Origin: Gemmatimonadaceae bacterium | Lineage (GTDB): Bacteria > Gemmatimonadota > Gemmatimonadetes > Gemmatimonadales > Gemmatimonadaceae | NCBI GenBank assembly: GCA_035758925.1 | Contig: DASTVV010000144.1 | Coordinates: forward strand, 1,281 to 65,280 | Direction: 5' to 3' | Length of the DNA stretch: 64,000 bases | Program-made: the position numbers and the translations under genes | Shown here: positions 13,708 through 44,168 of the stretch, piece by piece | How the letters are laid out: every line of letters begins with the position of its first letter | Numbering within the stretch: the first letter of the stretch is position 1 | Notes under the pieces: model-generated | The model's database searches: none | Told to the model about the DNA's origin: nothing | What the model saw: the letters and a program-made list of their open reading frames with translations, nothing else

Positions 13708-14892
<1,185 letters not shown>

Positions 14893-14893
14893 C

Positions 14894-16426
14894 ATGGCCG
14901 AGCCACTGTTCCTCGGCCTCGACGTCGGGACCAGCGGCGTGAAGGCCATTCTGGTCGCCACCAGCGGCCAGGTGGAGGCGTCGGCGATCGCCGCGCTCTC
15001 GCTGTCGACGCCCCATCCAGGGTGGGCCGAGCAGGACCCCGAGGCGTGGTGGCAGGCGTCCGTGTCCGCCATTCGCTCCGTCCTGGCAACACGGCCGGCG
15101 GCCCGCGTTGCAGCCATCGGCATCTCCGGCCAGATGCACTCGTCCGTCTTTCTCGACAAGCACGGCGCGGTGATCCGTCCAGCATTGCTCTGGTGCGATG
15201 GTCGTACGACGGCCGAGTGCCAGGAGATTACGCGTCGGTCGGGTGGCGAGAGCGCGCTGCGGGACTGGGTGCGCAATCCCGCATTGGAGGGGTTCACACT
15301 GCCCAAGGTCCTCTGGCTTCGGAACCACGAGCCGCAGGCGTTCGGCCGACTGGCTACCGTACTGCTCGCGAAGGACTTCATTCGCTATCGACTCACGGGC
15401 GTTCTCGCGTGCGAGCCGTCCGATGCGTCCGGTACGCTCATGTTCGATCCCGCGCGCCTGCAGTGGAGCCAGGACATCCTGCGTGCCGTATCGCTGTCGT
15501 CGTCGCTGCTTCCCGACGTCGGTGGTTCGTCAGAAGCGCTCGGCAAGGTGACCCCTGACGCGGCGTCGCTCACTGGTCTTCCCGCGGACATCCCGGTTGT
15601 GGGTGGCGGCGCGGACAACGCCTGTGGCGCCGCTGGCGTCGGCGTCATCGCTCCGGGTGAGGCGGTCGCAAGTTGGGGAACCTCTGGTACCGTGTTGGCG
15701 CCGACTGCGCAACCCCTCGTGGATCCGGGCCTCCGCGCACACACTTTCTGTCATGTTGTCCCGAACACATGGTATCTGATGGGCGTCGTGCTGTCCGCGG
15801 GCGGCGCGTTCGCCTGGTACAAGGATCAGTTCGCGCGCGAGCTCGCGGGCCCGGACCAGGTAGCGCGGCTGAACGAGGAAGCTGCAGCGGTTCCAGCCGG
15901 TGCGGACGGCGTCACGTTCCTGCCGTACCTTCAGGGCGAGCGAACGCCACATCGCGACGCATCCGCGCGCGGAGCGTTCCTCGGCCTGAGTCTGGCGCAC
16001 ACCCGCGCGCACACGACACGCGCCGTGGTGGAGGGCGTTTGCTTCGCGCTGCGCGACTCGGTTTCGATCCTTCGCGAGCTGGGACTCTCTCCCGGCAGCC
16101 TGCTGCTGACGGGCGGCGGGGCGCGCAGCCCGTTCGTGCGCCGGCTCCAGGCCGAGGTCTTCGGCCTGCCGGTCTGCACGGTGAATCGGGAAGAGGGTCC
16201 CGCGTACGGCGCGGCCCTTCTCGCTGCCGTTGGCGCCGGTACGTTTCCAGATCTCGCTGCGGCCACGGACGCGACCTTGTCGCGCGGGCCGCTCGAACGT
16301 CCAGACGACAGAGCTCACGCCGAATATCAGAAGTACTATGACCGCTACAGGGCATCATACACCGCCGCTCGCCCCGCCACCCCAAACCCCGCCGCCGACA
16401 CGGCCTCCGCGACAGCTCGTACCTGA
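14894..16426 (+). CDS. xylB: xylulokinase (FGGY family)
   Basis: LGLDVGTSGVKAILV N-terminus and GGGADNACGAAGVG and LTGGGARS motifs. Starts 1 nt after the xylA stop. Confidence 0.9.
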   Translation: MAEPLFLGLDVGTSGVKAILVATSGQVEASAIAALSLSTPHPGWAEQDPEAWWQASVSAIRSVLATRPAARVAAIGISGQMHSSVFLDKHGAVIRPALLWCDGRTTAECQEITRRSGGESALRDWVRNPALEGFTLPKVLWLRNHEPQAFGRLATVLLAKDFIRYRLTGVLACEPSDASGTLMFDPARLQWSQDILRAVSLSSSLLPDVGGSSEALGKVTPDAASLTGLPADIPVVGGGADNACGAAGVGVIAPGEAVASWGTSGTVLAPTAQPLVDPGLRAHTFCHVVPNTWYLMGVVLSAGGAFAWYKDQFARELAGPDQVARLNEEAAAVPAGADGVTFLPYLQGERTPHRDASARGAFLGLSLAHTRAHTTRAVVEGVCFALRDSVSILRELGLSPGSLLLTGGGARSPFVRRLQAEVFGLPVCTVNREEGPAYGAALLAAVGAGTFPDLAAATDATLSRGPLERPDDRAHAEYQKYYDRYRASYTAARPATPNPAADTASATART

Positions 16427-35489: not shown

Positions 35490-35519
35490 TTGACACCAAG
35501 TGACCAGATGACCTAAAAT
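35490..35519 (+). promoter_or_regulatory. candidate sigma70-type promoter for glnK-amtB
   Basis: TTGACA (35490-35495), an 18-nt spacer, then TAAAAT (35514-35519), 22 nt before the GTG start of the P-II gene. Confidence 0.45.
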
Positions 35520-35540: not shown

Positions 35541-35948
35541 GTGAAGCTCATCACCGCCATCATTCGGCCGGAGAAGCTGCCAGAAGTCAAGGCCGCGCTC
35601 TTTCGCGCCGGCGTCACGGGCATGACGCTGTCGCGCGTCAGCGGACACGGAGGCGAGCGCGAGATCATCCAGTCCTACCGCGCGGAGCGAGTGCTTCTCG
35701 AATTCCACGACAAGGTTCGCATCGAGATGGCGTGCTCCGAGCCGTTTGTCGAGCCCACCATCCAGGCGATTCTCGCCGCTGGCAGAACGGGCGAAGTCGG
35801 CGACGGCAAGATCTTCGTCCAGGCGCTCGAGCAGGTGATCCGCATTCGCACGGGCGAACGCGATATCGCCGCGCTCACGCCAGTGACCGCGGACGAGGTG
35901 CAGCGCGCCGCTCAGGAGGAATTCGCGAGGGAAGGGGAGTCCGCGTGA
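35541..35948 (+). CDS. glnK: P-II nitrogen regulatory protein (amtB-linked), with C-terminal extension
   Basis: MKLITAIIRPEKL..V..AL...GVTGMT...V.G.G and the B-loop RTGEVGDGKIFV...VIRIRTGE align without gaps to GlnB/GlnK. 135 aa versus the usual 112. Confidence 0.9.
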   Translation: MKLITAIIRPEKLPEVKAALFRAGVTGMTLSRVSGHGGEREIIQSYRAERVLLEFHDKVRIEMACSEPFVEPTIQAILAAGRTGEVGDGKIFVQALEQVIRIRTGERDIAALTPVTADEVQRAAQEEFAREGESA

Positions 35949-37303
35949 CCGTGCCGCTGCAGGGTGCGGCATCCGGAATCTCGAGCGGCGACACGGCGTG
36001 GCTCCTCGTGTCCACGGCGCTCGTCATGCTCATGGTGCCGGGACTCGCGCTCTTCTACGGTGGTCTGGTGCGCAGCAAGAGCTCCCTCAACACGCTCATG
36101 ATGAGCGTGGCTGCTCTCGGCGTCGTGACGGTGCAATGGGTGCTCGTCGGGTACTCCCTTGCGTTCAGCTCGAAGTCGGCGCTGCTGGGCGGGCTGCACT
36201 GGTGGGGATTCAACGGTGTCGGCCTCGAGCCCAATCCGACGTACGCGGCCACGGTTCCGCACGTGGCCTATGCGACATTCCAGGCGATGTTCGCGGCCAT
36301 CACCATCGCGCTCGTATCGGGCGCCGTCGTCGAGCGGCTGCGCTTTCGCGCGTATCTCGTGTTCGTCGCGATCTGGACAACGGTGGTGTACGATCCGCTG
36401 GCGCACTGGGTGTGGGGCGAAGGCGGCTGGCTGCGAAACCTCGGCGCGCTGGACTTCGCGGGCGGGACGGTGGTGCATGTCAGCGCCGGGACGTCCGCGC
36501 TGGTCGCTGCGTGGATGCTGGGCCAGCGTCGCGGCCTCGGACGCATCGCGTTCGTTCCCCACAACGTGCCCTTCACCGTGCTCGGCGCCGGCCTCCTCTG
36601 GTTCGGCTGGTTCGGGTTCAACGCGGGCTCGGCGCTTGCCGCCAATGGACTGGCCGCCAGTGCGCTGCTGGCCACCCAAGTGGCCGCGAGCGCCTCGCTG
36701 ACGGTCTGGATGCTCATCGATCTCACGCGCACGGGCACGTCCACGGCCGTCGGTGCCGCCACAGGTGCGGTCGTCGGACTCGTGGCGATCACTCCCGCCG
36801 CGGGCTACGTCACGCCGCGCGCGGCGCTCGTCATTGGAGCGATTGCGGCGATCGGCAGCTACTTCGCCATTCAGCTCAGGGCCCGCACGTCGGTGGACGA
36901 CTCCCTCGACGTCTTTGCCTGCCACGGAGTCGCGGGCATCATCGGCGCGCTGCTGACTGGCGTGTTCGCCACGAAGGCCGTGAACCCTGCGGGCGCCAAC
37001 GGGCTGCTCGCCGGCAATCCCACGCAGGTGCGCATTCAGCTCATGGCGGTCGTCGCGACCATGGGCCTCGCGGGCGGCCTCACGCTGGGGATCCTCGGAG
37101 CGCTGCGCGTCGTGATGCCGCTTCGCGTCCCACTGGACCGCGAGCTCTTCGGCGTCGATCAGAGCGAGCACGGCGAAGAGGCATATCACGGCGCCGACAT
37201 CGGCGACATCACGGGCCGGCACATCTCGCTCGGCGACAGCGTGCTGATTCCCGCCAGCGACATCGGCGGCAGCGGCAGCAATCCTCGCTCCGCCTCAGCG
37301 TAG
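35945..37303 (+). CDS. amtB: ammonium transporter
   Basis: The GTG at 35945 overlaps the P-II stop (GTGA). DTAWLLVSTALVMLMVPGLALFYGG and DFAGGTVVH motifs. About 11 TM segments. Confidence 0.92.
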   Translation: MTVPLQGAASGISSGDTAWLLVSTALVMLMVPGLALFYGGLVRSKSSLNTLMMSVAALGVVTVQWVLVGYSLAFSSKSALLGGLHWWGFNGVGLEPNPTYAATVPHVAYATFQAMFAAITIALVSGAVVERLRFRAYLVFVAIWTTVVYDPLAHWVWGEGGWLRNLGALDFAGGTVVHVSAGTSALVAAWMLGQRRGLGRIAFVPHNVPFTVLGAGLLWFGWFGFNAGSALAANGLAASALLATQVAASASLTVWMLIDLTRTGTSTAVGAATGAVVGLVAITPAAGYVTPRAALVIGAIAAIGSYFAIQLRARTSVDDSLDVFACHGVAGIIGALLTGVFATKAVNPAGANGLLAGNPTQVRIQLMAVVATMGLAGGLTLGILGALRVVMPLRVPLDRELFGVDQSEHGEEAYHGADIGDITGRHISLGDSVLIPASDIGGSGSNPRSASA

Positions 37304-37335: not shown

Positions 37336-38400
37336 ATGGTCTGGGAACAACGCTGGCATCCACTCCGGCGCGAGTGGGTCGTGGTCACCTCGCACCGGGA
37401 CAATCGGCCCTGGCGTGGAGCGGTCGTGGAGCACGCGCGGCCGCCGCTGCCGCCATACGTTGCCGACTGCTACCTGTGTCCCGGGAACGAGCGCGTGTCC
37501 GGCCGTCGAAACGCCGCGTATTCCGGCGTGTTCGTCTTCGACAACGACCACCCCTGCGTCGGCCCTGAGGCGCCGACGGACCTCGAGTCGCCAGCGGGCA
37601 TCTACCGTAACAGGCCGGCCGCGGGCCTCTCGCGCGTCGTCTGCTTCTCGCCGCGCCACGACGTCACGCTCGCGGAGCTGCCACAGGACGAGATCGTGAG
37701 CCTGCTGGTGACGCTCCAGGACCAACAGCGCGATCTGAGTTCGCGGGACGAGATCCGCAACGTCCTCATGTTCGAGAACAAGGGCGAGGTGGTGGGGGTC
37801 AGCAACCCGCATCCGCACTGCCAGATCTACGCGACGAACTTCGTCTTCAGGACCATCGAGCTCGAAGCCGAGGCTGGCGAGGAATACCTGCGTCAGAACG
37901 GCCGAGTGCTCTTTCAGGATGTCCTTGCAGCCGAGGAAGCGGATGGGCGCCGGATGATCGTTGGCGGCGCCGAGGATGCGGCGCGTGGAAGGACGCGATC
38001 CGCGGTTGCGTTCGTCCCCTACTTTGCGCGCTACGCGTACGAGACGTTCGTTGCTCCGCGGGCCACACACGCGAGCATCGCCGGTCTGTCGCGCGGCGAG
38101 ATCGACGACCTGGCCGCGGTGCTCCGCGAAACGCTGATACGGCTGGAGAATCTCTGGTGCATGCCGTTGCCGTACGTCCTGGTGCTGCACCAGGCACCGA
38201 CGGACGGTCGCCAATACCCCGGCTTTCACTTTCACATCGAGATCTATCCACCGCTGCGGAAGCCCGGGCTGCTCAAGTACCTCGCCGGCCCTGAAATTGG
38301 CGGCGGCAACTTCCTCAACGACACGTCGCCTGAAGCAAAGGCGGCCGAGCTCCGCGCCGTGTCGAGGGTGCACTACAAACATCGCGGCGCTCATGCGTGA
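37336..38400 (+). CDS. galT: galactose-1-phosphate uridylyltransferase-like (class I HIT)
   Basis: Zn motif CYLCPGNER and active-site HPHCQIYA (His-Pro-His). About 354 aa. Confidence 0.85.
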
Positions 38401-39424
38401 GGGGGGAGGAGCGACGGACGCGAAAGTGCTGCTCGAACCGCTGCTCGCGCTGCACGACCGCATCCGCGACGCGGTGCTCCGCGCCTGCGAGCAACAGTCC
38501 TCGGCCGACCTTTCCGCGGTTGCCAGTGACGATACGTCCCCTGGCGACACGATCTACGCGATCGATCGCGTTGGCGAAGCGGCGCTCGAGGAAGGCCTCG
38601 CGGAGATCGCGCTCACCGAGCCATTGGTCCTGGTGGCGGAGGGCTTGGCCGGCGGCAAGCTGGTTCTACCCCGCGGCACGTCCGAGAGCGGATGCCGCTG
38701 GCGAATCCTCATGGATCCGATCGACGGTACGCGCGGGCTGATGTTCCAGAAGCGCAGCGCCTGGATTCTCACCGGCGTTGCGCCGAACAAAGGCGATCAT
38801 ACACGGTTGCGGGACATTACGCTTGCGGTGCAGACCGAGATTCCGCTTCTCAAGCAGCACCTCGGCGACCAGCTTTGGGCAGTGCGCGGCGGCGGCACAC
38901 AGGCGCGACGGTTCGATCGTGTGTCTGGTCGAACTGCACCGCTCACGCTGCGACCGTCCCGGGCAGGCACAATCGAACACGGGTTCTCCACGGTCGTGCG
39001 ATTCTTTCCCGGCGCTCGCGACGTTCTCGCCGCCGTCGACGATGATCTGGTGCTCGCGGTGCTGGGACCTCCGCCGGCGGGCCGCGCCGCCTGCTTCGAG
39101 GACCAGTATGCATCCACGGGCGGCCAGCTTTACGAGTTGATGGCGGGTCACGACCGTTTCATCGCTGATCTGCGACCGCTCACGATGGCGGTTCTCGCGG
39201 AGCGCGGGCTCCCGCAGCCCCTCTGCTGTCACCCGTACGACGTTTGCGCGTCATTGATCGCGGAGGAGCTGGGGGTGGTCGTCACGGACGCCTTCGGCGC
39301 GCCGCTGGACGCTCCGTTCGAGCTGGAAAGCGATGTTGCATGGATCGGCTATGCGAACGCCCAGCTTCGTGCGGTTCTCGAACCCCAGCTGCGCTTGGCC
39401 CTGCGACAGCGGAAACTGAGCTGA
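38393..39424 (+). CDS. inositol monophosphatase/FBPase-family phosphatase-like protein
   Basis: The ATG at 38393 overlaps the galT 3' end by 8 nt. Metal-binding motif [11 protein letters not shown] and a C-terminal [19 protein letters not shown] (divergent WD-x-AAG-like motif). Confidence 0.7.
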
Positions 39425-39443
39425 TGACGCCCAAGACTGACAC

Positions 39444-40916
39444 ATGCGACTCCACCGTCGGTCGGACCTGAGCGCCGGCGAAGCGTCGCTGTTTGACGCA
39501 GCGCTGTCGCGCCTTGCCGCGATGCCCGCGGATCCTGACGACCGGATTCGCACGTTCCTCTCTCCGCAAAAACCGACGTACATCGGACGCGCTCCCGGCC
39601 GCCTGGACGTCATGGGTGGGATAGCGGACTACAGCGGAGCGCTCGTGCTGGAGATGCCGCTCGATCGCGCCACGTTCGCTTTCGTCCAGCGCCACCCATC
39701 GATGCGGTGTGAGATTGCCACCCGGCGCGACAACGCCTGGCAGTTTTTCGCGATCGAGCTGACGCGGCTACTCTCGGGCGACCTGCGTGACCCGGCGAGC
39801 CTCGCCGACAGGTTTGCCAAGGGAGACCCGGCCGACGCGTGGGCGGCATACGTGGTGGGAGTCGTTCAACTTTGCGCAGAGCGCGCCGACGTCACTGCTC
39901 TCGTTCGCGGCGGCTTTCGCATCCTGATCGATTCCAGCGTGCCCGAAGGAAAGGGCGTGAGCTCGTCGGCCGCGCTCGAAGTGGCGGCAATGTCAGCCGT
40001 CGCTGCGGCCCTCGACGTGCCCGTGGGTGCGTCGGACATCGCCACGGCGTGCCAGTGGGTGGAGAATCACATCGTCGGCGCACCGTGCGGCATCATGGAC
40101 CAGATGACGAGTGCGTGCGGCCGACGCGACCGGCTGCTGCGCTTGCGCTGTCAGCCAGCCGTCGCCGACGGATTCGTCAGCGTCCCCTGGGGCTTCCGAT
40201 TCTTCGGCATCGATTCCGGTGTGAAGCACGCTGTGTCCGGCAGCGCCTACGGGCGCGTGCGCACGGCGGCGTTCATGGGTTATCGCATCATCGCGGAGCG
40301 CGCGGGCCTCAAGGCATCGGTGGACGGTCACGGTCGCGCCCACGTGGACGATGCTCGCTGGCGCGGCTATCTGGCCAACATCCCGCTCGCCGACTTCGCG
40401 CGCTTCGAGTCCGAGCTTCCAGTCGAAATGATGGGCTCGGACTTCCTCGCGACGTACGGCGGCACCACCGACAACGCCACGCGCGTCCGGCCCGACGAGC
40501 GCTATGCAGTGCGCGCGGCCACCGCGCATCCGGTGAACGAGCAGGATCGTGTCGACCGCTTTGCCCGGCTGCTGCCGGACTTGTCCCGGGCCGACGCAAC
40601 CCGAGAGCTGGGGCAACTCATGCTCGATTCACACGCCAGCTACAGCGCGTGCGGACTGGGCTCCCCCGAGACGGATCGTCTGGTTGAGATGGTGCGGGAC
40701 GCTGGTCCGGAACGCGGTTTGTTCGGCGCCAAGATCACCGGCGGAGGCAGCGGCGGCACAGTCGCGATACTCGGCCGCGCCGACGCCGAGACAGTGGTCC
40801 GGGATATCGCCGCGCGCTACGCAGCGGAAACCGGACTGTCGGCCGAGCTGTTCCTCAATTCGGGTCCCGGTGCCGAGGAAACCGGAGTATTACTTCTCGA
40901 TTCTCACGACGCCTGA
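39444..40916 (+). CDS. GHMP-family sugar-1-kinase, L-arabinokinase-like rather than canonical GalK
   Basis: GRAPGRLDVMGGIADYSGALVLEMPL (GalK has GRVNLIGEHTDY here), GHMP motif II SSVPEGKGVSSSAALEVA, and motif III KITGGGSGGTV. 490 aa. Confidence 0.8.
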   Translation: MRLHRRSDLSAGEASLFDAALSRLAAMPADPDDRIRTFLSPQKPTYIGRAPGRLDVMGGIADYSGALVLEMPLDRATFAFVQRHPSMRCEIATRRDNAWQFFAIELTRLLSGDLRDPASLADRFAKGDPADAWAAYVVGVVQLCAERADVTALVRGGFRILIDSSVPEGKGVSSSAALEVAAMSAVAAALDVPVGASDIATACQWVENHIVGAPCGIMDQMTSACGRRDRLLRLRCQPAVADGFVSVPWGFRFFGIDSGVKHAVSGSAYGRVRTAAFMGYRIIAERAGLKASVDGHGRAHVDDARWRGYLANIPLADFARFESELPVEMMGSDFLATYGGTTDNATRVRPDERYAVRAATAHPVNEQDRVDRFARLLPDLSRADATRELGQLMLDSHASYSACGLGSPETDRLVEMVRDAGPERGLFGAKITGGGSGGTVAILGRADAETVVRDIAARYAAETGLSAELFLNSGPGAEETGVLLLDSHDA

Positions 40917-40978
40917 CGCATCACGCATGCAGACGCATGGCGGATGACGCATGCTGACGCATGGCGAATGACGCATGT
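40914..40978. repeat. 24-nt tandem repeat x about 2.7 (GACGCATG-rich) between convergent genes
   Basis: ATCACGCATGCAGACGCATGGCGG (40920-40943), ATGACGCATGCTGACGCATGGCGA (40944-40967), then ATGACGCATG... (40968-). The core GACGCATG occurs 5 times, plus one CACGCATG variant. Contains GCATGC palindromes. Confidence 0.8.
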
Positions 40979-42040
40979 CTAGGCTGGCCGCTCCCACCGA
41001 TGCGTCTCCGCCGATCGGAACAGCGCGTCGATCACCTCCAGGTTCGCGATCGAGTCCTCGAGCGTGACCGGCACGTCCTCATCACCGCGCAGTGCCCTGC
41101 AGAAGTGGTCTGTCTGCAGCGTGTACTGATCGACAATGGGGAACTCGATCACCTCGGCCGCCGCGCTGGCAACCTTGCTTCCGTCGTCCACGAAGATCCG
41201 ACACGGCCGATCCGTCGGCGGCGGTGGCGGCGCGTTGAACGGGATCTCGATCATGATACGGCCGCGCGTCCCGAAGATCTCCATACGCTGAAACGGTACC
41301 AGCTGCCCCGCGCACGTGAACGCCGCCTGACCTGACGGGAATCGCAACATCGCCGAGAGCAGTCGGTCGATGTGCATGTCGGGATCACGCTCGATCATGG
41401 CGATCGCTTCCGTCGGTTCTTCGTCGAATAGCCATCGGGACATGGTGATCGGGTAGCATCCGATGTCGAAGAGCGCGCCGCCGCCGAACTCGAGGCGGCT
41501 GCGCACGTCATGCGGATCGCGCCTGAAATAGCTGAAGTGCCCGGCGACGAGGCGCAGGTCTCCGATGCGGCCCGATCGAGCCAGGCGGCGCGCCTCCAGC
41601 CACTGCGGATGGGTGCGCACCATGAACGCTTCCTCGATCACGCGACCGGTGTGTCGTCGCACTTCCAGCAGCTGTCGTGCTTCCGCCGCCGAGGTGGCGA
41701 TTGGCTTCTCACACAGAACGTGCTTTCCTGCGTGCGCCGCCTTGATGGTCCACGGCACGTGCAGGTGGTTGGGCAGCGGGATGTATACCGCTTCGATCGC
41801 CGGGTCCTCGAGCAGCTCTTCGTACGAGCCGTAGGCACGGTCGATCCCCTGGGCGTTCGCGGCCTTGCGCGCCTTGTCGATGTCGCGTGACGCGATCGCC
41901 TCTACACGAGCGAGCGCGCTCTTGCGCATCGCGGGAATGACTTTGGTGAGTGCGATGCTGGCCGTGCCCAGAATGCCCCAGCGCACCGGCTCAGCCGACC
42001 GCTTGGCGTCGCTCATCGCTTGGCGCTGACGCCCTACCAA
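40979..42040 (-). CDS. Gfo/Idh/MocA-family NAD(P)-dependent oxidoreductase
   Basis: Rossmann N-terminus VRWGILGTASIALTKVIPA and an EKP motif (VLCEKPIA). The start is 42040 or the ATG at 42016. It overlaps the upstream AKR stop by 7 nt. Confidence 0.85.
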   Translation of the reverse strand: MVGRQRQAMSDAKRSAEPVRWGILGTASIALTKVIPAMRKSALARVEAIASRDIDKARKAANAQGIDRAYGSYEELLEDPAIEAVYIPLPNHLHVPWTIKAAHAGKHVLCEKPIATSAAEARQLLEVRRHTGRVIEEAFMVRTHPQWLEARRLARSGRIGDLRLVAGHFSYFRRDPHDVRSRLEFGGGALFDIGCYPITMSRWLFDEEPTEAIAMIERDPDMHIDRLLSAMLRFPSGQAAFTCAGQLVPFQRMEIFGTRGRIMIEIPFNAPPPPPTDRPCRIFVDDGSKVASAAAEVIEFPIVDQYTLQTDHFCRALRGDEDVPVTLEDSIANLEVIDALFRSAETHRWERPA

Positions 42041-43020
42041 CGCGAGTGGATCGCCGGGCGAATGTGCTTGTCGTAGACTGCCTTGGCTGCGCCCAGGGTT
42101 TGAGGGGTCAGTGCTGCGAGGCCCGCGGCTCGCACGTTCTCCTCGACCTGCCGCGCGTTCTTGCCGCCTGGAATCGCCGCCGTCACTTCCGGGGACATGA
42201 GGATCCAGCGCAGCGCCATCTGTGCGAGCGACGCCTCCGCCGGAACCAGCGCTCGCAATTCCTCCACGGCGCGCAGGCCAGTCGCGTAGTCCACACCGCT
42301 GAAGGTCTCGCCCATGTCGAACTCTTCGCCGTGGCGATTGAACCTGCGGTGGTCGCGCTCCGCGAACTGCGTGTCGACACGCAGCTTGCCAGTCAGCATG
42401 CCGCTCGCCAGCGGCACCCGAGCGAGAATCCCGACTTTGCGTCCCTTCGCGAGCGCAAAGAAGCGCTCGGCGGGCTTGGTGCGAAACAGGTTGTAGATGA
42501 TCTGCACGCTCTGGACGTTGGGATATTCCAGTGCGCGAATCGCTTCCTCCACGTACTCGACGCTCACGCCGTAGTAGCGCAGCTTGCCGGCCGCGCAGAG
42601 GTCGTCCAGCACGCCGAACACCTCGGGCATCCCGTAGACCTCTGGTGGAGGGCAGTGCAGTTGCAGCAGATCGATTGTGTCGCTGCCGAGATTCTTCAGG
42701 CTGCGTTCGACGAATGCGGTGAGGTTCGCCCGATTGTAGCCAGCCGCCACGTGAGGATCGAGACGACGCCCGGCCTTGGTGGCTATGATGATCTCGTCGC
42801 GACGCTCGCGCCGGAGGCGCCCCACCAGGCGCTCGGAGTTGCCGTCACCATAGACGTCGGCCGTGTCGATGAAGTTGACGCCAAGATCAACGGCGCGATG
42901 CAGCGCCCGAAGTGATTCGTCGTTGTCGGTCTGGCCCCATTCGTTGCCGCCGATTGCCCAGGCACCGAAGCTGACGGATGAGATGCGCCAGCCCGTGCGT
43001 CCCAGCTCGCGATATTCCAT
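42034..43020 (-). CDS. aldo/keto reductase
   Basis: Start moved to the ATG at 43020: MEYRELGRTGWRISSVSFGAWAIGG...AVDLGVNFIDTADVYGDGNSE, the classic AKR N-terminus. 328 aa. Confidence 0.88.
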   Translation of the reverse strand: MEYRELGRTGWRISSVSFGAWAIGGNEWGQTDNDESLRALHRAVDLGVNFIDTADVYGDGNSERLVGRLRRERRDEIIIATKAGRRLDPHVAAGYNRANLTAFVERSLKNLGSDTIDLLQLHCPPPEVYGMPEVFGVLDDLCAAGKLRYYGVSVEYVEEAIRALEYPNVQSVQIIYNLFRTKPAERFFALAKGRKVGILARVPLASGMLTGKLRVDTQFAERDHRRFNRHGEEFDMGETFSGVDYATGLRAVEELRALVPAEASLAQMALRWILMSPEVTAAIPGGKNARQVEENVRAAGLAALTPQTLGAAKAVYDKHIRPAIHSRW

Positions 43021-43028
43021 GTGTTCCC

Positions 43029-44168
43029 TCAGGAGACAGAGAAACGATACACGGTGCTCGACTGGTACGCTTTCCCCGGTCGCAAGATGGTCGAAGGAAA
43101 CGCCGCCTGGTTCGGTGAATCGGGAAAATGCTGCGTCTCGAGCGCCACGCCGGAATGCGCGCGATACGCATGTCCGCCTTTGCCTGACCGCCCGCCAGCC
43201 AGGTGATTGCCGGAGTATAGCTGCATGCCGCATTCGGTCGTGAGAAGCTCCACCGTCCGGCCGCTGACGGGATCGCGCAGCCGCGCAGCGAGCACCAGCG
43301 TGTCGTCGCGGTCGCGATCGATGACGTAGTTGTGATCGTAGCCCGAGCCCAGCCGCAGCTGCTCGTCGTCGGCGTCGATGCGTTCGCCGATGCGCCGCGG
43401 CGTCGTGAAGTCGAACGGCGTCCCACGCACAGGCCGAAGCTCGCCCGTCGGAATGAGGTTCGAGTTCACCGGTGTGAACCGCGACGCCTGGATCGTGAGC
43501 TCGTGATCCAGGATGTCACCTGCGTCGTGCCCTGCCAGGTTCAAGTACGTGTGCTGCGTGAGGTTCACGGGCGTCGCCTGATCCGTGACGGCGTGATAGT
43601 CGACGATGAGCTCATCGTCGTTGGTGAGCGTGTAGGTCACGCGCGTCTCGAGTGTGCCGGGATACCCCTCTTCGCCGGCAAGACTCGTGTACAGCAGCTC
43701 GACTCCCGCCGCGTTGGTCTCCGAGAACGGCTGAAGGTCCCAAACGGCCTGATGGAATCCGCGGATGCCGCCGTGCAGAGCGTTGTCGCCGTTGTTGGCC
43801 GCGAGCCGGTACTCCTCGCCGTCGAGCGAGAAGCGCGCGCCGGCAATCCGATTGGCGTAGCGACCGACGATCGAGCCAAAATATCGCCCGTCGCTCAGAT
43901 AGTCGCCGGGCGACTCGAATCCGAGCGCGACGTCGTCCTTCACGCCGCGATGGTCCGGGACCTCGAGCGACATGATCGTGCCGCCGATGGCCATGAGACG
44001 CACGAAGATGCCATGAGCGTTCGAGAGGGTCAGCGCGTCGACAGGACGTCCACTGTCGCTCACAGGCAGCGGATGGCGCTCCACCCGTGGTGCGGGCAGC
44101 ACGGCGCGCGCGGGCGGCGACGGCAACGACGACACGCGGGAAGGGGACAACGGTGGAGGATTTGTCAC
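43029..44168 (-). CDS. galM: aldose 1-epimerase (mutarotase)
   Basis: GRYANRIAGARF, NNGDNALHGG, THTYLNL and FPDSPN motifs of the GalM family. The start codon is uncertain (GTG at 44168; Pro/Ser-rich N-terminal 45 aa). Confidence 0.82.
   Translation of the reverse strand: MTNPPPLSPSRVSSLPSPPARAVLPAPRVERHPLPVSDSGRPVDALTLSNAHGIFVRLMAIGGTIMSLEVPDHRGVKDDVALGFESPGDYLSDGRYFGSIVGRYANRIAGARFSLDGEEYRLAANNGDNALHGGIRGFHQAVWDLQPFSETNAAGVELLYTSLAGEEGYPGTLETRVTYTLTNDDELIVDYHAVTDQATPVNLTQHTYLNLAGHDAGDILDHELTIQASRFTPVNSNLIPTGELRPVRGTPFDFTTPRRIGERIDADDEQLRLGSGYDHNYVIDRDRDDTLVLAARLRDPVSGRTVELLTTECGMQLYSGNHLAGGRSGKGGHAYRAHSGVALETQHFPDSPNQAAFPSTILRPGKAYQSSTVYRFSVS

Follow-up and report, generated by a model that had tools for sequence, protein, structure and literature searches.

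L-Arabinose ranks among the chief pentoses of the plant cell wall, and bacteria are known to break it down by the AraBAD isomerase pathway or by oxidative pathways. Galactose is handled by the Leloir pathway (GalM, GalK, GalT and GalE, as in the gal operon of E. coli). Enzymes of related type also work in other settings. The bifidobacterial galacto-N-biose/lacto-N-biose (GNB/LNB) pathway, with NahK, GalT2/LnpC and GalE2/LnpD, is a paralogous second Leloir-like set that acts on another galacto-configured sugar beside the canonical gal genes. In the plant ascorbate route, the GalT-like HIT enzyme VTC2/VTC5 is followed by VTC4, an L-galactose-1-phosphate phosphatase of the inositol monophosphatase (IMPase) family. 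The plant kinase ARA1 functions in L-arabinose salvage (PMC12281597), and salvage of uridine diphosphate (UDP)-xylose in Solitalea combines GalK with a pyrophosphorylase, a different second enzyme from the one described here (PMC11267548). We analysed a 64-kb window, meaning the whole stretch of DNA under study, of contig DASTVV010000144.1 from a Gemmatimonadaceae bacterium (GCA_035758925.1; assembly 93% complete; G+C of the window 65%). It contains a trio of genes encoding a GalT-like transferase, a protein with the fold of fructose-1,6-bisphosphatase (FBPase) and IMPase, and an ARA1-like sugar-1-kinase. It is almost certain that this trio is a conserved functional unit, separate from the pathway for galactose. 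We further propose, with a probability of roughly one in two for the full mechanism, that it is one conserved catabolic module in which a Leloir-type pathway has been rebuilt for a pentose.

The three genes lie on the plus strand and are as tightly packed as the original prediction, made from the sequence alone, had described. The first (37336..38400; ATG at 37336, TGA at 38398-38400) encodes a class I GalT-like uridylyltransferase paralogue of 354 amino acids. The second (38393..39424; ATG at 38393, TGA at 39422-39424) overlaps it by 8 nt and encodes the FBPase/IMPase-fold protein of 343 amino acids. A gap of 19 nt separates this gene from the third (39444..40916, ATG at 39444), which encodes a GHMP-family sugar-1-kinase of 490 amino acids. 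The prediction that this organisation is undescribed in bacteria held up in a literature search: work on bacterial arabinokinases, Leloir-like arabinose metabolism and arabinose- or xylose-1-phosphate yielded no account of the trio or of a UDP-sugar route from arabinose to xylose.

In its sequence, the kinase groups with plant ARA1-type L-arabinokinases, apart from GalK. It matches GHMP_kinases_N, GHMP_kinases_C and the GalKase signature, and residues 52-65 read GRLDVMGGIADYSG, the variant that had first pointed to an ARA1-like enzyme. Against the galactokinase equivalog TIGR00131 it scored 155.6 bits, below the cut-off of 226.65. Direct BLASTP gave 40-44% identity (323-333 bits) to plant ARA1 proteins versus 29% (125 bits) to E. 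coli GalK. In a search for long plant proteins, in which the query was padded so that only candidates above about 650 amino acids were left, plant ARA1 was recovered at 39-45% identity and 330-350 bits, with about 90% of the kinase covered. In a maximum-likelihood tree, the kinases from bacteria shared one clade with the ARA1 domains of plants (SH-aLRT, an approximate likelihood-ratio branch support, of 96), which a long branch parted from the 13 canonical GalKs included; this agrees with the predicted placement outside bona fide bacterial GalK. The top homologues bear Gemmatimonadaceae or Gemmatimonadota names. The solved structure 'AbGHMP' (PDB 9ulx/9uly), a bacterial GHMP kinase of 498 amino acids, matched residues 34-485 with 430 bits (E 9e-128) and clearly belongs to this family; a literature search on AbGHMP found neither a paper nor a stated substrate. 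In the alignment from that search, the E-H of the GalK signature is replaced by G-I in our kinase, at positions that we take to be contacts to the galactose C6 hydroxyl. We propose that the enzyme is an L-arabinose 1-kinase.

Plant ARA1 shares with the bacterial kinase its clade, about 90% coverage of the kinase domain and the GRLDVMGGIADYSG-type signature. The plant proteins are longer, at about 700-1090 amino acids (mostly around 1000), many with an N-terminal glycosyltransferase-like PF13528 domain, whereas the bacterial enzyme consists of the kinase domain alone. Plant salvage pairs ARA1 with a UDP-sugar pyrophosphorylase, whereas the bacterial kinase is paired with a GalT-type transferase and a phosphatase in a catabolic context. 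The kinase domains of plant and green-algal ARA1 formed a single subclade nested among the bacterial kinases, a topology compatible with an ancient transfer from bacteria to the green lineage or the reverse. Another GHMP sugar kinase of the same genome (406 amino acids; contig C76:6006-10091) is very divergent, with 95 bits on TIGR00131 and a long branch in the tree. A gene resembling sugar-1-phosphate nucleotidylyltransferases and one for an SSF-type transporter lie beside it, and these genes look like a separate salvage pair of kinase plus pyrophosphorylase.

The transferase is, by its domains and motifs, a true class I HPH/Zn relative of GalT. It carries the N- and C-terminal GalT domains in Pfam and NCBIfam (PF01087, PF02744) and passed the GalT equivalog TIGR00209 with 255.7 bits (cut-off 102.1). 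It also retains, as originally noted, the zinc-binding CxxC (CYLCPGN) and the HPH motif (NPHPHCQ). The closest solved structure was E. coli GalT at 216 bits; we rejected assignment as an ADP-glucose or GDP-sugar phosphorylase, as the ADP-glucose phosphorylase structure 1z84 scored only 62.6 bits. At the sugar site, more than 50 GalTs of the module have LKYLAGPE[IV]GGG[NS]F in common, where the E. coli type reads KFMVGYEMLAE. We considered this motif as a marker of specificity and rejected it, as the KYLAG type also occurs in GalTs that adjoin canonical galK (loci L097 and L098).

The middle protein lies far from named families in sequence. It matched Pfam Inositol_P partially, over 79 residues, with 30.6 bits (cut-off 27), and had no NCBIfam match at E <= 1e-5; a longer open reading frame (ORF) of the same gene, of 375 amino acids, gave negligible NCBIfam scores of 19.8 and 16.5 bits (cut-offs about 265). 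Searches of the PDB with its sequence or profile were marginal, the profile reaching only PH1897 (1vdw; E 9.5e-4). Sequence models thus place it outside the named characterised subfamilies (FBPase, IMPase/SuhB, CysQ and HAL2). The AlphaFold model, built on 28 homologues, was nevertheless confident (pLDDT 86, pTM 0.88), and its best Foldseek matches were class I fructose-1,6-bisphosphatases (E about 1e-12, TM scores of 0.64-0.72), at just 13-15% sequence identity. This modelled fold, of the two-domain alpha/beta kind typical of the superfamily, backs the predicted presence of an FBPase/IMPase-type phosphatase between transferase and kinase. Residues common to the superfamily were kept: the acidic metal ligands and the DPIDGT motif (E83, D108-P-I-D111-G-T113 and D283) were invariant or near-invariant across the 28 homologues, and every full-length homologue had DP[IL]DGT. 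Because a confidently predicted FBPase-type fold is combined with conserved metal-site residues, the protein probably has phosphatase activity and represents an unnamed FBPase/IMPase-fold subfamily found within this module.

To follow the trio across genomes, we scanned one genome per species for the kinase signature. At least 600 stretches were found and at least 586 confirmed, so that no fewer than 586 species genomes carry the motif, the majority from abundant but poorly cultured soil phyla. Locus counts given below refer to the best 80 kinase loci, in which reference homologues were located by tblastn and neighbouring ORFs were clustered. The phosphatase gene was present in 55 of these 80 and is syntenic in relatives, as the original prediction required. 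Among the 62 loci with enough upstream sequence to judge, 45 had the phosphatase, nearly always in the order galT-phosphatase-kinase and with galT itself in 41; the other 17 had none, and in 13 of them galT stood immediately 5' of the kinase. The trio was conserved in Gemmatimonadota, Acidobacteriota, Chloroflexota and Planctomycetota, and was seen on three independent metagenome contigs with otherwise unlike flanks. Since the gene order recurs across dozens of species and several phyla, the arrangement is not due to chance. Within a phylum its occurrence is scattered: of the Gemmatimonadota and Acidobacteriota sampled, 6 of 151 and 7 of 201 have it. Two cultured Chloroflexota, Ktedonobacter racemifer DSM 44963 and Dictyobacter aurantiacus S27, are among the carriers (loci L081 and L038). 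Natural fusions of GalT and kinase (about 830 amino acids) were found in Gemmataceae and relatives, and fusions of phosphatase and kinase (about 750-850 amino acids) in, for example, Polyangiaceae (proteins P0126-P0135 and P0138-P0146, covering both kinds).

Most carriers keep the canonical galactose genes as well. Of 50 kinase-bearing genomes, 41 also encode a galactokinase that passes TIGR00131 (227-404 bits; 43-50% identity to E. coli GalK), several of these galK genes being flanked by their own galT or galE. Genome G170 has both sets: galK-galE at one locus (L094) and the consecutive genes galT, phosphatase, kinase and galE at another (L056), where galM, xylB and xylA follow within the next 8 kb. 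The retention of canonical galK in 41 of 50 genomes indicates that the module stands beside the galactose genes as a second Leloir-like set. Its likeness to the Leloir pathway lies in the GHMP sugar-1-kinase, the class I HPH/Zn uridylyltransferase, a GalM-type mutarotase nearby and, in many relatives, a GalE-family epimerase 3' of the kinase. It differs in that the kinase belongs to another clade, the FBPase/IMPase-fold phosphatase is integral, and linkage is to xylA/xylB, not to phosphoglucomutase. When the trio was compared with the Leloir pathway on four features, the GalT agreed, whereas the kinase fell short of the GalK model, this genome had no GalE above the model cut-off and the exit was not free of a phosphatase.

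The setting of the trio is a glucurono(arabino)xylan utilisation locus, which matches the xylan context read from the window at the outset. The window encodes a SusC/SusD pair, glycoside hydrolases (GH) of families GH10 (two), GH3 (two), GH43, GH67 and GH115, and XylA and XylB; an MFS transporter, an ABC sugar importer and a GalM-type mutarotase, the latter about 2 kb from the trio, complete the surroundings. Across the 80 loci, neighbours included a GalE-family epimerase (23; a representative scored 406 bits on TIGR01179), xylA (17), xylB (14), GH51 alpha-L-arabinofuranosidase (16), GH127 beta-L-arabinofuranosidase (9, plus 5 fragments), sugar ABC transporter components (15-20) and galM (7, all among the 55 with the phosphatase and none among the 17 without). 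xylA adjoined the module solely where the phosphatase was present (17/45 versus 0/17; Fisher p = 0.003, to be read as descriptive). Counted over all 55 loci with the phosphatase, the number is likewise 17. At the level of whole genomes, xylA occurred in 41 of 42 kinase-bearing genomes with the phosphatase versus 2 of 8 without. Among 201 Acidobacteriota, GH51 was found in 7/7 phosphatase-positive genomes versus 27/194 others, and class I xylA in 6/7 versus 17/194.

We propose the following pathway. L-Arabinopyranose is D-galactose without C6, and UDP-L-arabinose and UDP-xylose are 4-epimers, which fits a Leloir-type cycle run on this pentose pair. The ARA1-type kinase would phosphorylate L-arabinopyranose at C1 to L-arabinose-1-phosphate. 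The GalT paralogue would then exchange uridine monophosphate (L-arabinose-1-phosphate + UDP-xylose to UDP-L-arabinose + xylose-1-phosphate), and a GalE-type 4-epimerase would recycle UDP-L-arabinose to UDP-xylose. The FBPase/IMPase-fold enzyme, as a putative alpha-D-xylose-1-phosphate phosphatase, would release free D-xylose, which would enter XylA and XylB encoded in the same xylan locus. Hydrolysis is the logical exit, because xylose-1-phosphate, unlike glucose-1-phosphate, has no 1,6-phosphomutase route. What the analysis shows is the identity and family placement of the genes, their conserved synteny, the natural fusions, the presence of canonical gal genes in the same genomes and the kinds of neighbours; all the substrates, the UDP-xylose donor, the target of the phosphatase and the choice of epimerase in this genome are inferred. 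The proposed pathway resembles the GNB/LNB pathway as a second set for another galacto-configured sugar, and differs from the latter's non-GHMP kinase, N-acetylhexosamine substrates and mutase exit. With VTC2/VTC5 and VTC4 it has in common that a GalT-superfamily enzyme releases a sugar-1-phosphate and an IMPase-superfamily phosphatase hydrolyses it; VTC2, however, is a GDP-sugar phosphorylase in a kinase-free, biosynthetic route, and the module phosphatase is remote from the VTC4 type in sequence. That L-arabinose is widely catabolised in bacteria through such a 'pentose Leloir shunt' to D-xylose and xylose isomerase seems to us slightly short of an even chance; the same reserve applies to its corollary that many Acidobacteriota, Gemmatimonadota, Chloroflexota and Planctomycetota without araBAD use the shunt as their route for arabinose.

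A number of observations weigh against this pathway. The substrate assignments derive from the homology with plant ARA1 and from the genes nearby, the sugar-site motif of GalT is non-diagnostic for the sugar, and each arabinose would consume two ATP. In the whole assembly of our genome, no GalE exceeded the TIGR01179 cut-off of 262.3, which makes a closed cycle weak here; the best GalE-like short-chain dehydrogenase/reductase (C129:56374-57348, 181 bits) is unlinked and has tol and uvrB genes around it. Of 16 further Gemmatimonadota genomes with the module, nine likewise had no GalE above the cut-off, and galE adjoined the module in none of the Gemmatimonadota loci. The same assembly has no TIGR00131 match above cut-off and no canonical galK or galT, so that a role in galactose metabolism is possible in this genome. 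The absence of galE and canonical galK had been noted for the window and holds for the assembly as a whole. In favour of the pathway, the genome contains xylA, xylB, galM and two GH127 genes, and homologues of araA, araB and araD were not found in it.

The associations across genomes also have to be read with care. Fisher tests ignore relatedness. The kinase tree contains four independent gains or losses of the phosphatase, so few contrasts that a phylogenetically controlled test of the phosphatase-xylA association is powerless and cannot reach significance. A hemicellulose-degrading lifestyle may explain part of the signal. We also considered an anticorrelation with AraA as support and rejected it: among the 50 kinase-bearing genomes there was one clear and one weak AraA match, but AraA is rare in the background (8 of 201 Acidobacteriota, with no overlap with the 7 module genomes, p = 1), which makes its absence uninformative. 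Separate kinase clades according to phosphatase presence were likewise rejected, as kinases with and without the phosphatase at their loci interleave in the tree; the same enzyme may thus serve a hexose-type context in Planctomycetota. A phosphomutase of the phosphoglucomutase/phosphomannomutase (PGM/PMM) type was adjacent solely in phosphatase-less Planctomycetota loci (5/17 versus 0/55, p = 4e-4), in genomes from which the phosphatase is absent altogether, and this suggests a hexose-type output there. The mutase adjoins galT-kinase in loci L042, L044, L051, L069 and L083, sometimes together with GH51 or GH127.

Alternatively, the module could serve anabolic salvage, with kinase and GalT making UDP-L-arabinose or another UDP-sugar for glycans and the phosphatase acting as a safety valve against toxic sugar-1-phosphate. 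This was close to the original prediction, which suggested salvage to a UDP-sugar with a proofreading or bypass phosphatase. Salvage is the role of plant ARA1, IMPase-family enzymes can hydrolyse sugar-1-phosphates, and the missing adjacent galE in Gemmatimonadota, like the lack of a GalE above cut-off in our genome, leaves a closed cycle unsupported here. A kinase and a phosphatase acting on one compound from one operon, and sometimes from one fused polypeptide, would however form a futile cycle, and with UDP-glucose as donor the product would be glucose-1-phosphate, for which no dedicated phosphatase is needed. The neighbours, moreover, are catabolic and not glycosyltransferases; xylA/xylB, arabinofuranosidases and other glycoside hydrolases, importers and module-linked galE paralogues fit breakdown better. 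We therefore consider salvage unlikely.

The Leloir pathway in its usual galactose role, merely with a galactokinase that has diverged and a phosphatase of unrelated or regulatory function, seems improbable. It would suit our own genome, which has no other galK or galT and has a GalM-type mutarotase 2 kb from the trio, and the phosphatase-less Planctomycetota loci, where a PGM/PMM mutase is expected for glucose-1-phosphate output. It accords poorly with the 41 of 50 genomes that keep canonical galK, several with its own galT or galE, with a kinase clade far from GalK that includes the plant L-arabinokinases, and with the change of E-H to G-I at the presumed C6 hydroxyl contacts. The conserved phosphatase and the linkage to xylA/xylB would be left unexplained. 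A Leloir-type cycle with phosphatase for another 4-epimer pair, such as D-galacturonate/D-glucuronate or another galacto-configured sugar whose gluco-configured partner is released, is very improbable: the window, which encodes GH67 and GH115 glucuronidases, is a glucuronoxylan locus and sugar specificity cannot be read from the sequences, but the neighbours across genomes are arabinofuranosidases and xylA/xylB and not uronate genes, plant arabinokinases lie inside the kinase clade, bacteria isomerise both uronates directly, and the uronic-acid substrate that had been floated at the start found no specific support.

If the proposed conversion of L-arabinose to D-xylose is correct, it would supply a piece missing from metabolic reconstructions of carbon turnover in soil and define a new family of sugar-1-phosphate phosphatases. 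Bacterial 'L-arabinokinase' annotations would gain a function, a bacterial relationship would be suggested for the plant ARA1 kinase domain, and kinase plus GalT would provide a compact enzyme set for UDP-pentose production.

The other genes of the window that enter the proposal lie on both sides of the trio. Xylose isomerase XylA (13708..14892, plus strand; TIGR02631 581 bits, cut-off 447) and xylulokinase XylB (14906..16165, the extent of the tblastn-aligned segment, plus strand; 42% identity to E. coli XylB over 420 residues) are the proposed downstream steps. An aldose 1-epimerase of GalM type (43029..44168, minus strand; PF01263 298 bits; PRK11055 331 bits, cut-off 240) is a probable accessory mutarotase.

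Directly 5' of galT, on the same strand and separated by 32 nt, lie glnK (P-II, an ORF of 135 amino acids) and amtB (window 35541-37303). The sole sigma-70-like promoter match within 35.3-41.2 kb is at 35490-35519, 5' of glnK (11 of 12 positions); the interval between amtB and galT showed no promoter-like site, and its 32 nt no terminator-like one, and the trio may be transcribed by read-through from glnK-amtB. We rejected glnK-amtB as part of the module, an amt homologue adjoining it in 0 of 80 related loci, and treated the adjacency as incidental because it was seen in this genome alone. On the other side, a GFO/IDH/MocA oxidoreductase gene identified by Pfam matches (40979..42040, minus strand) is convergent with the kinase gene. 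The entire gap between the two (40914-40978) consists of direct repeats of a unit containing GACGCATG. The best NCBIfam match of the oxidoreductase was the D-xylose 1-dehydrogenase Gfo6, at a sub-threshold 134 bits (cut-off 350). It is a recurrent neighbour of the module in Gemmatimonadota, with homologues of 61-66% identity in loci L013, L014 and L019 and a further one in L008. An aldo-keto reductase accompanies it in the window (together spanning 40979-43233, minus strand) and in L008 and L014.

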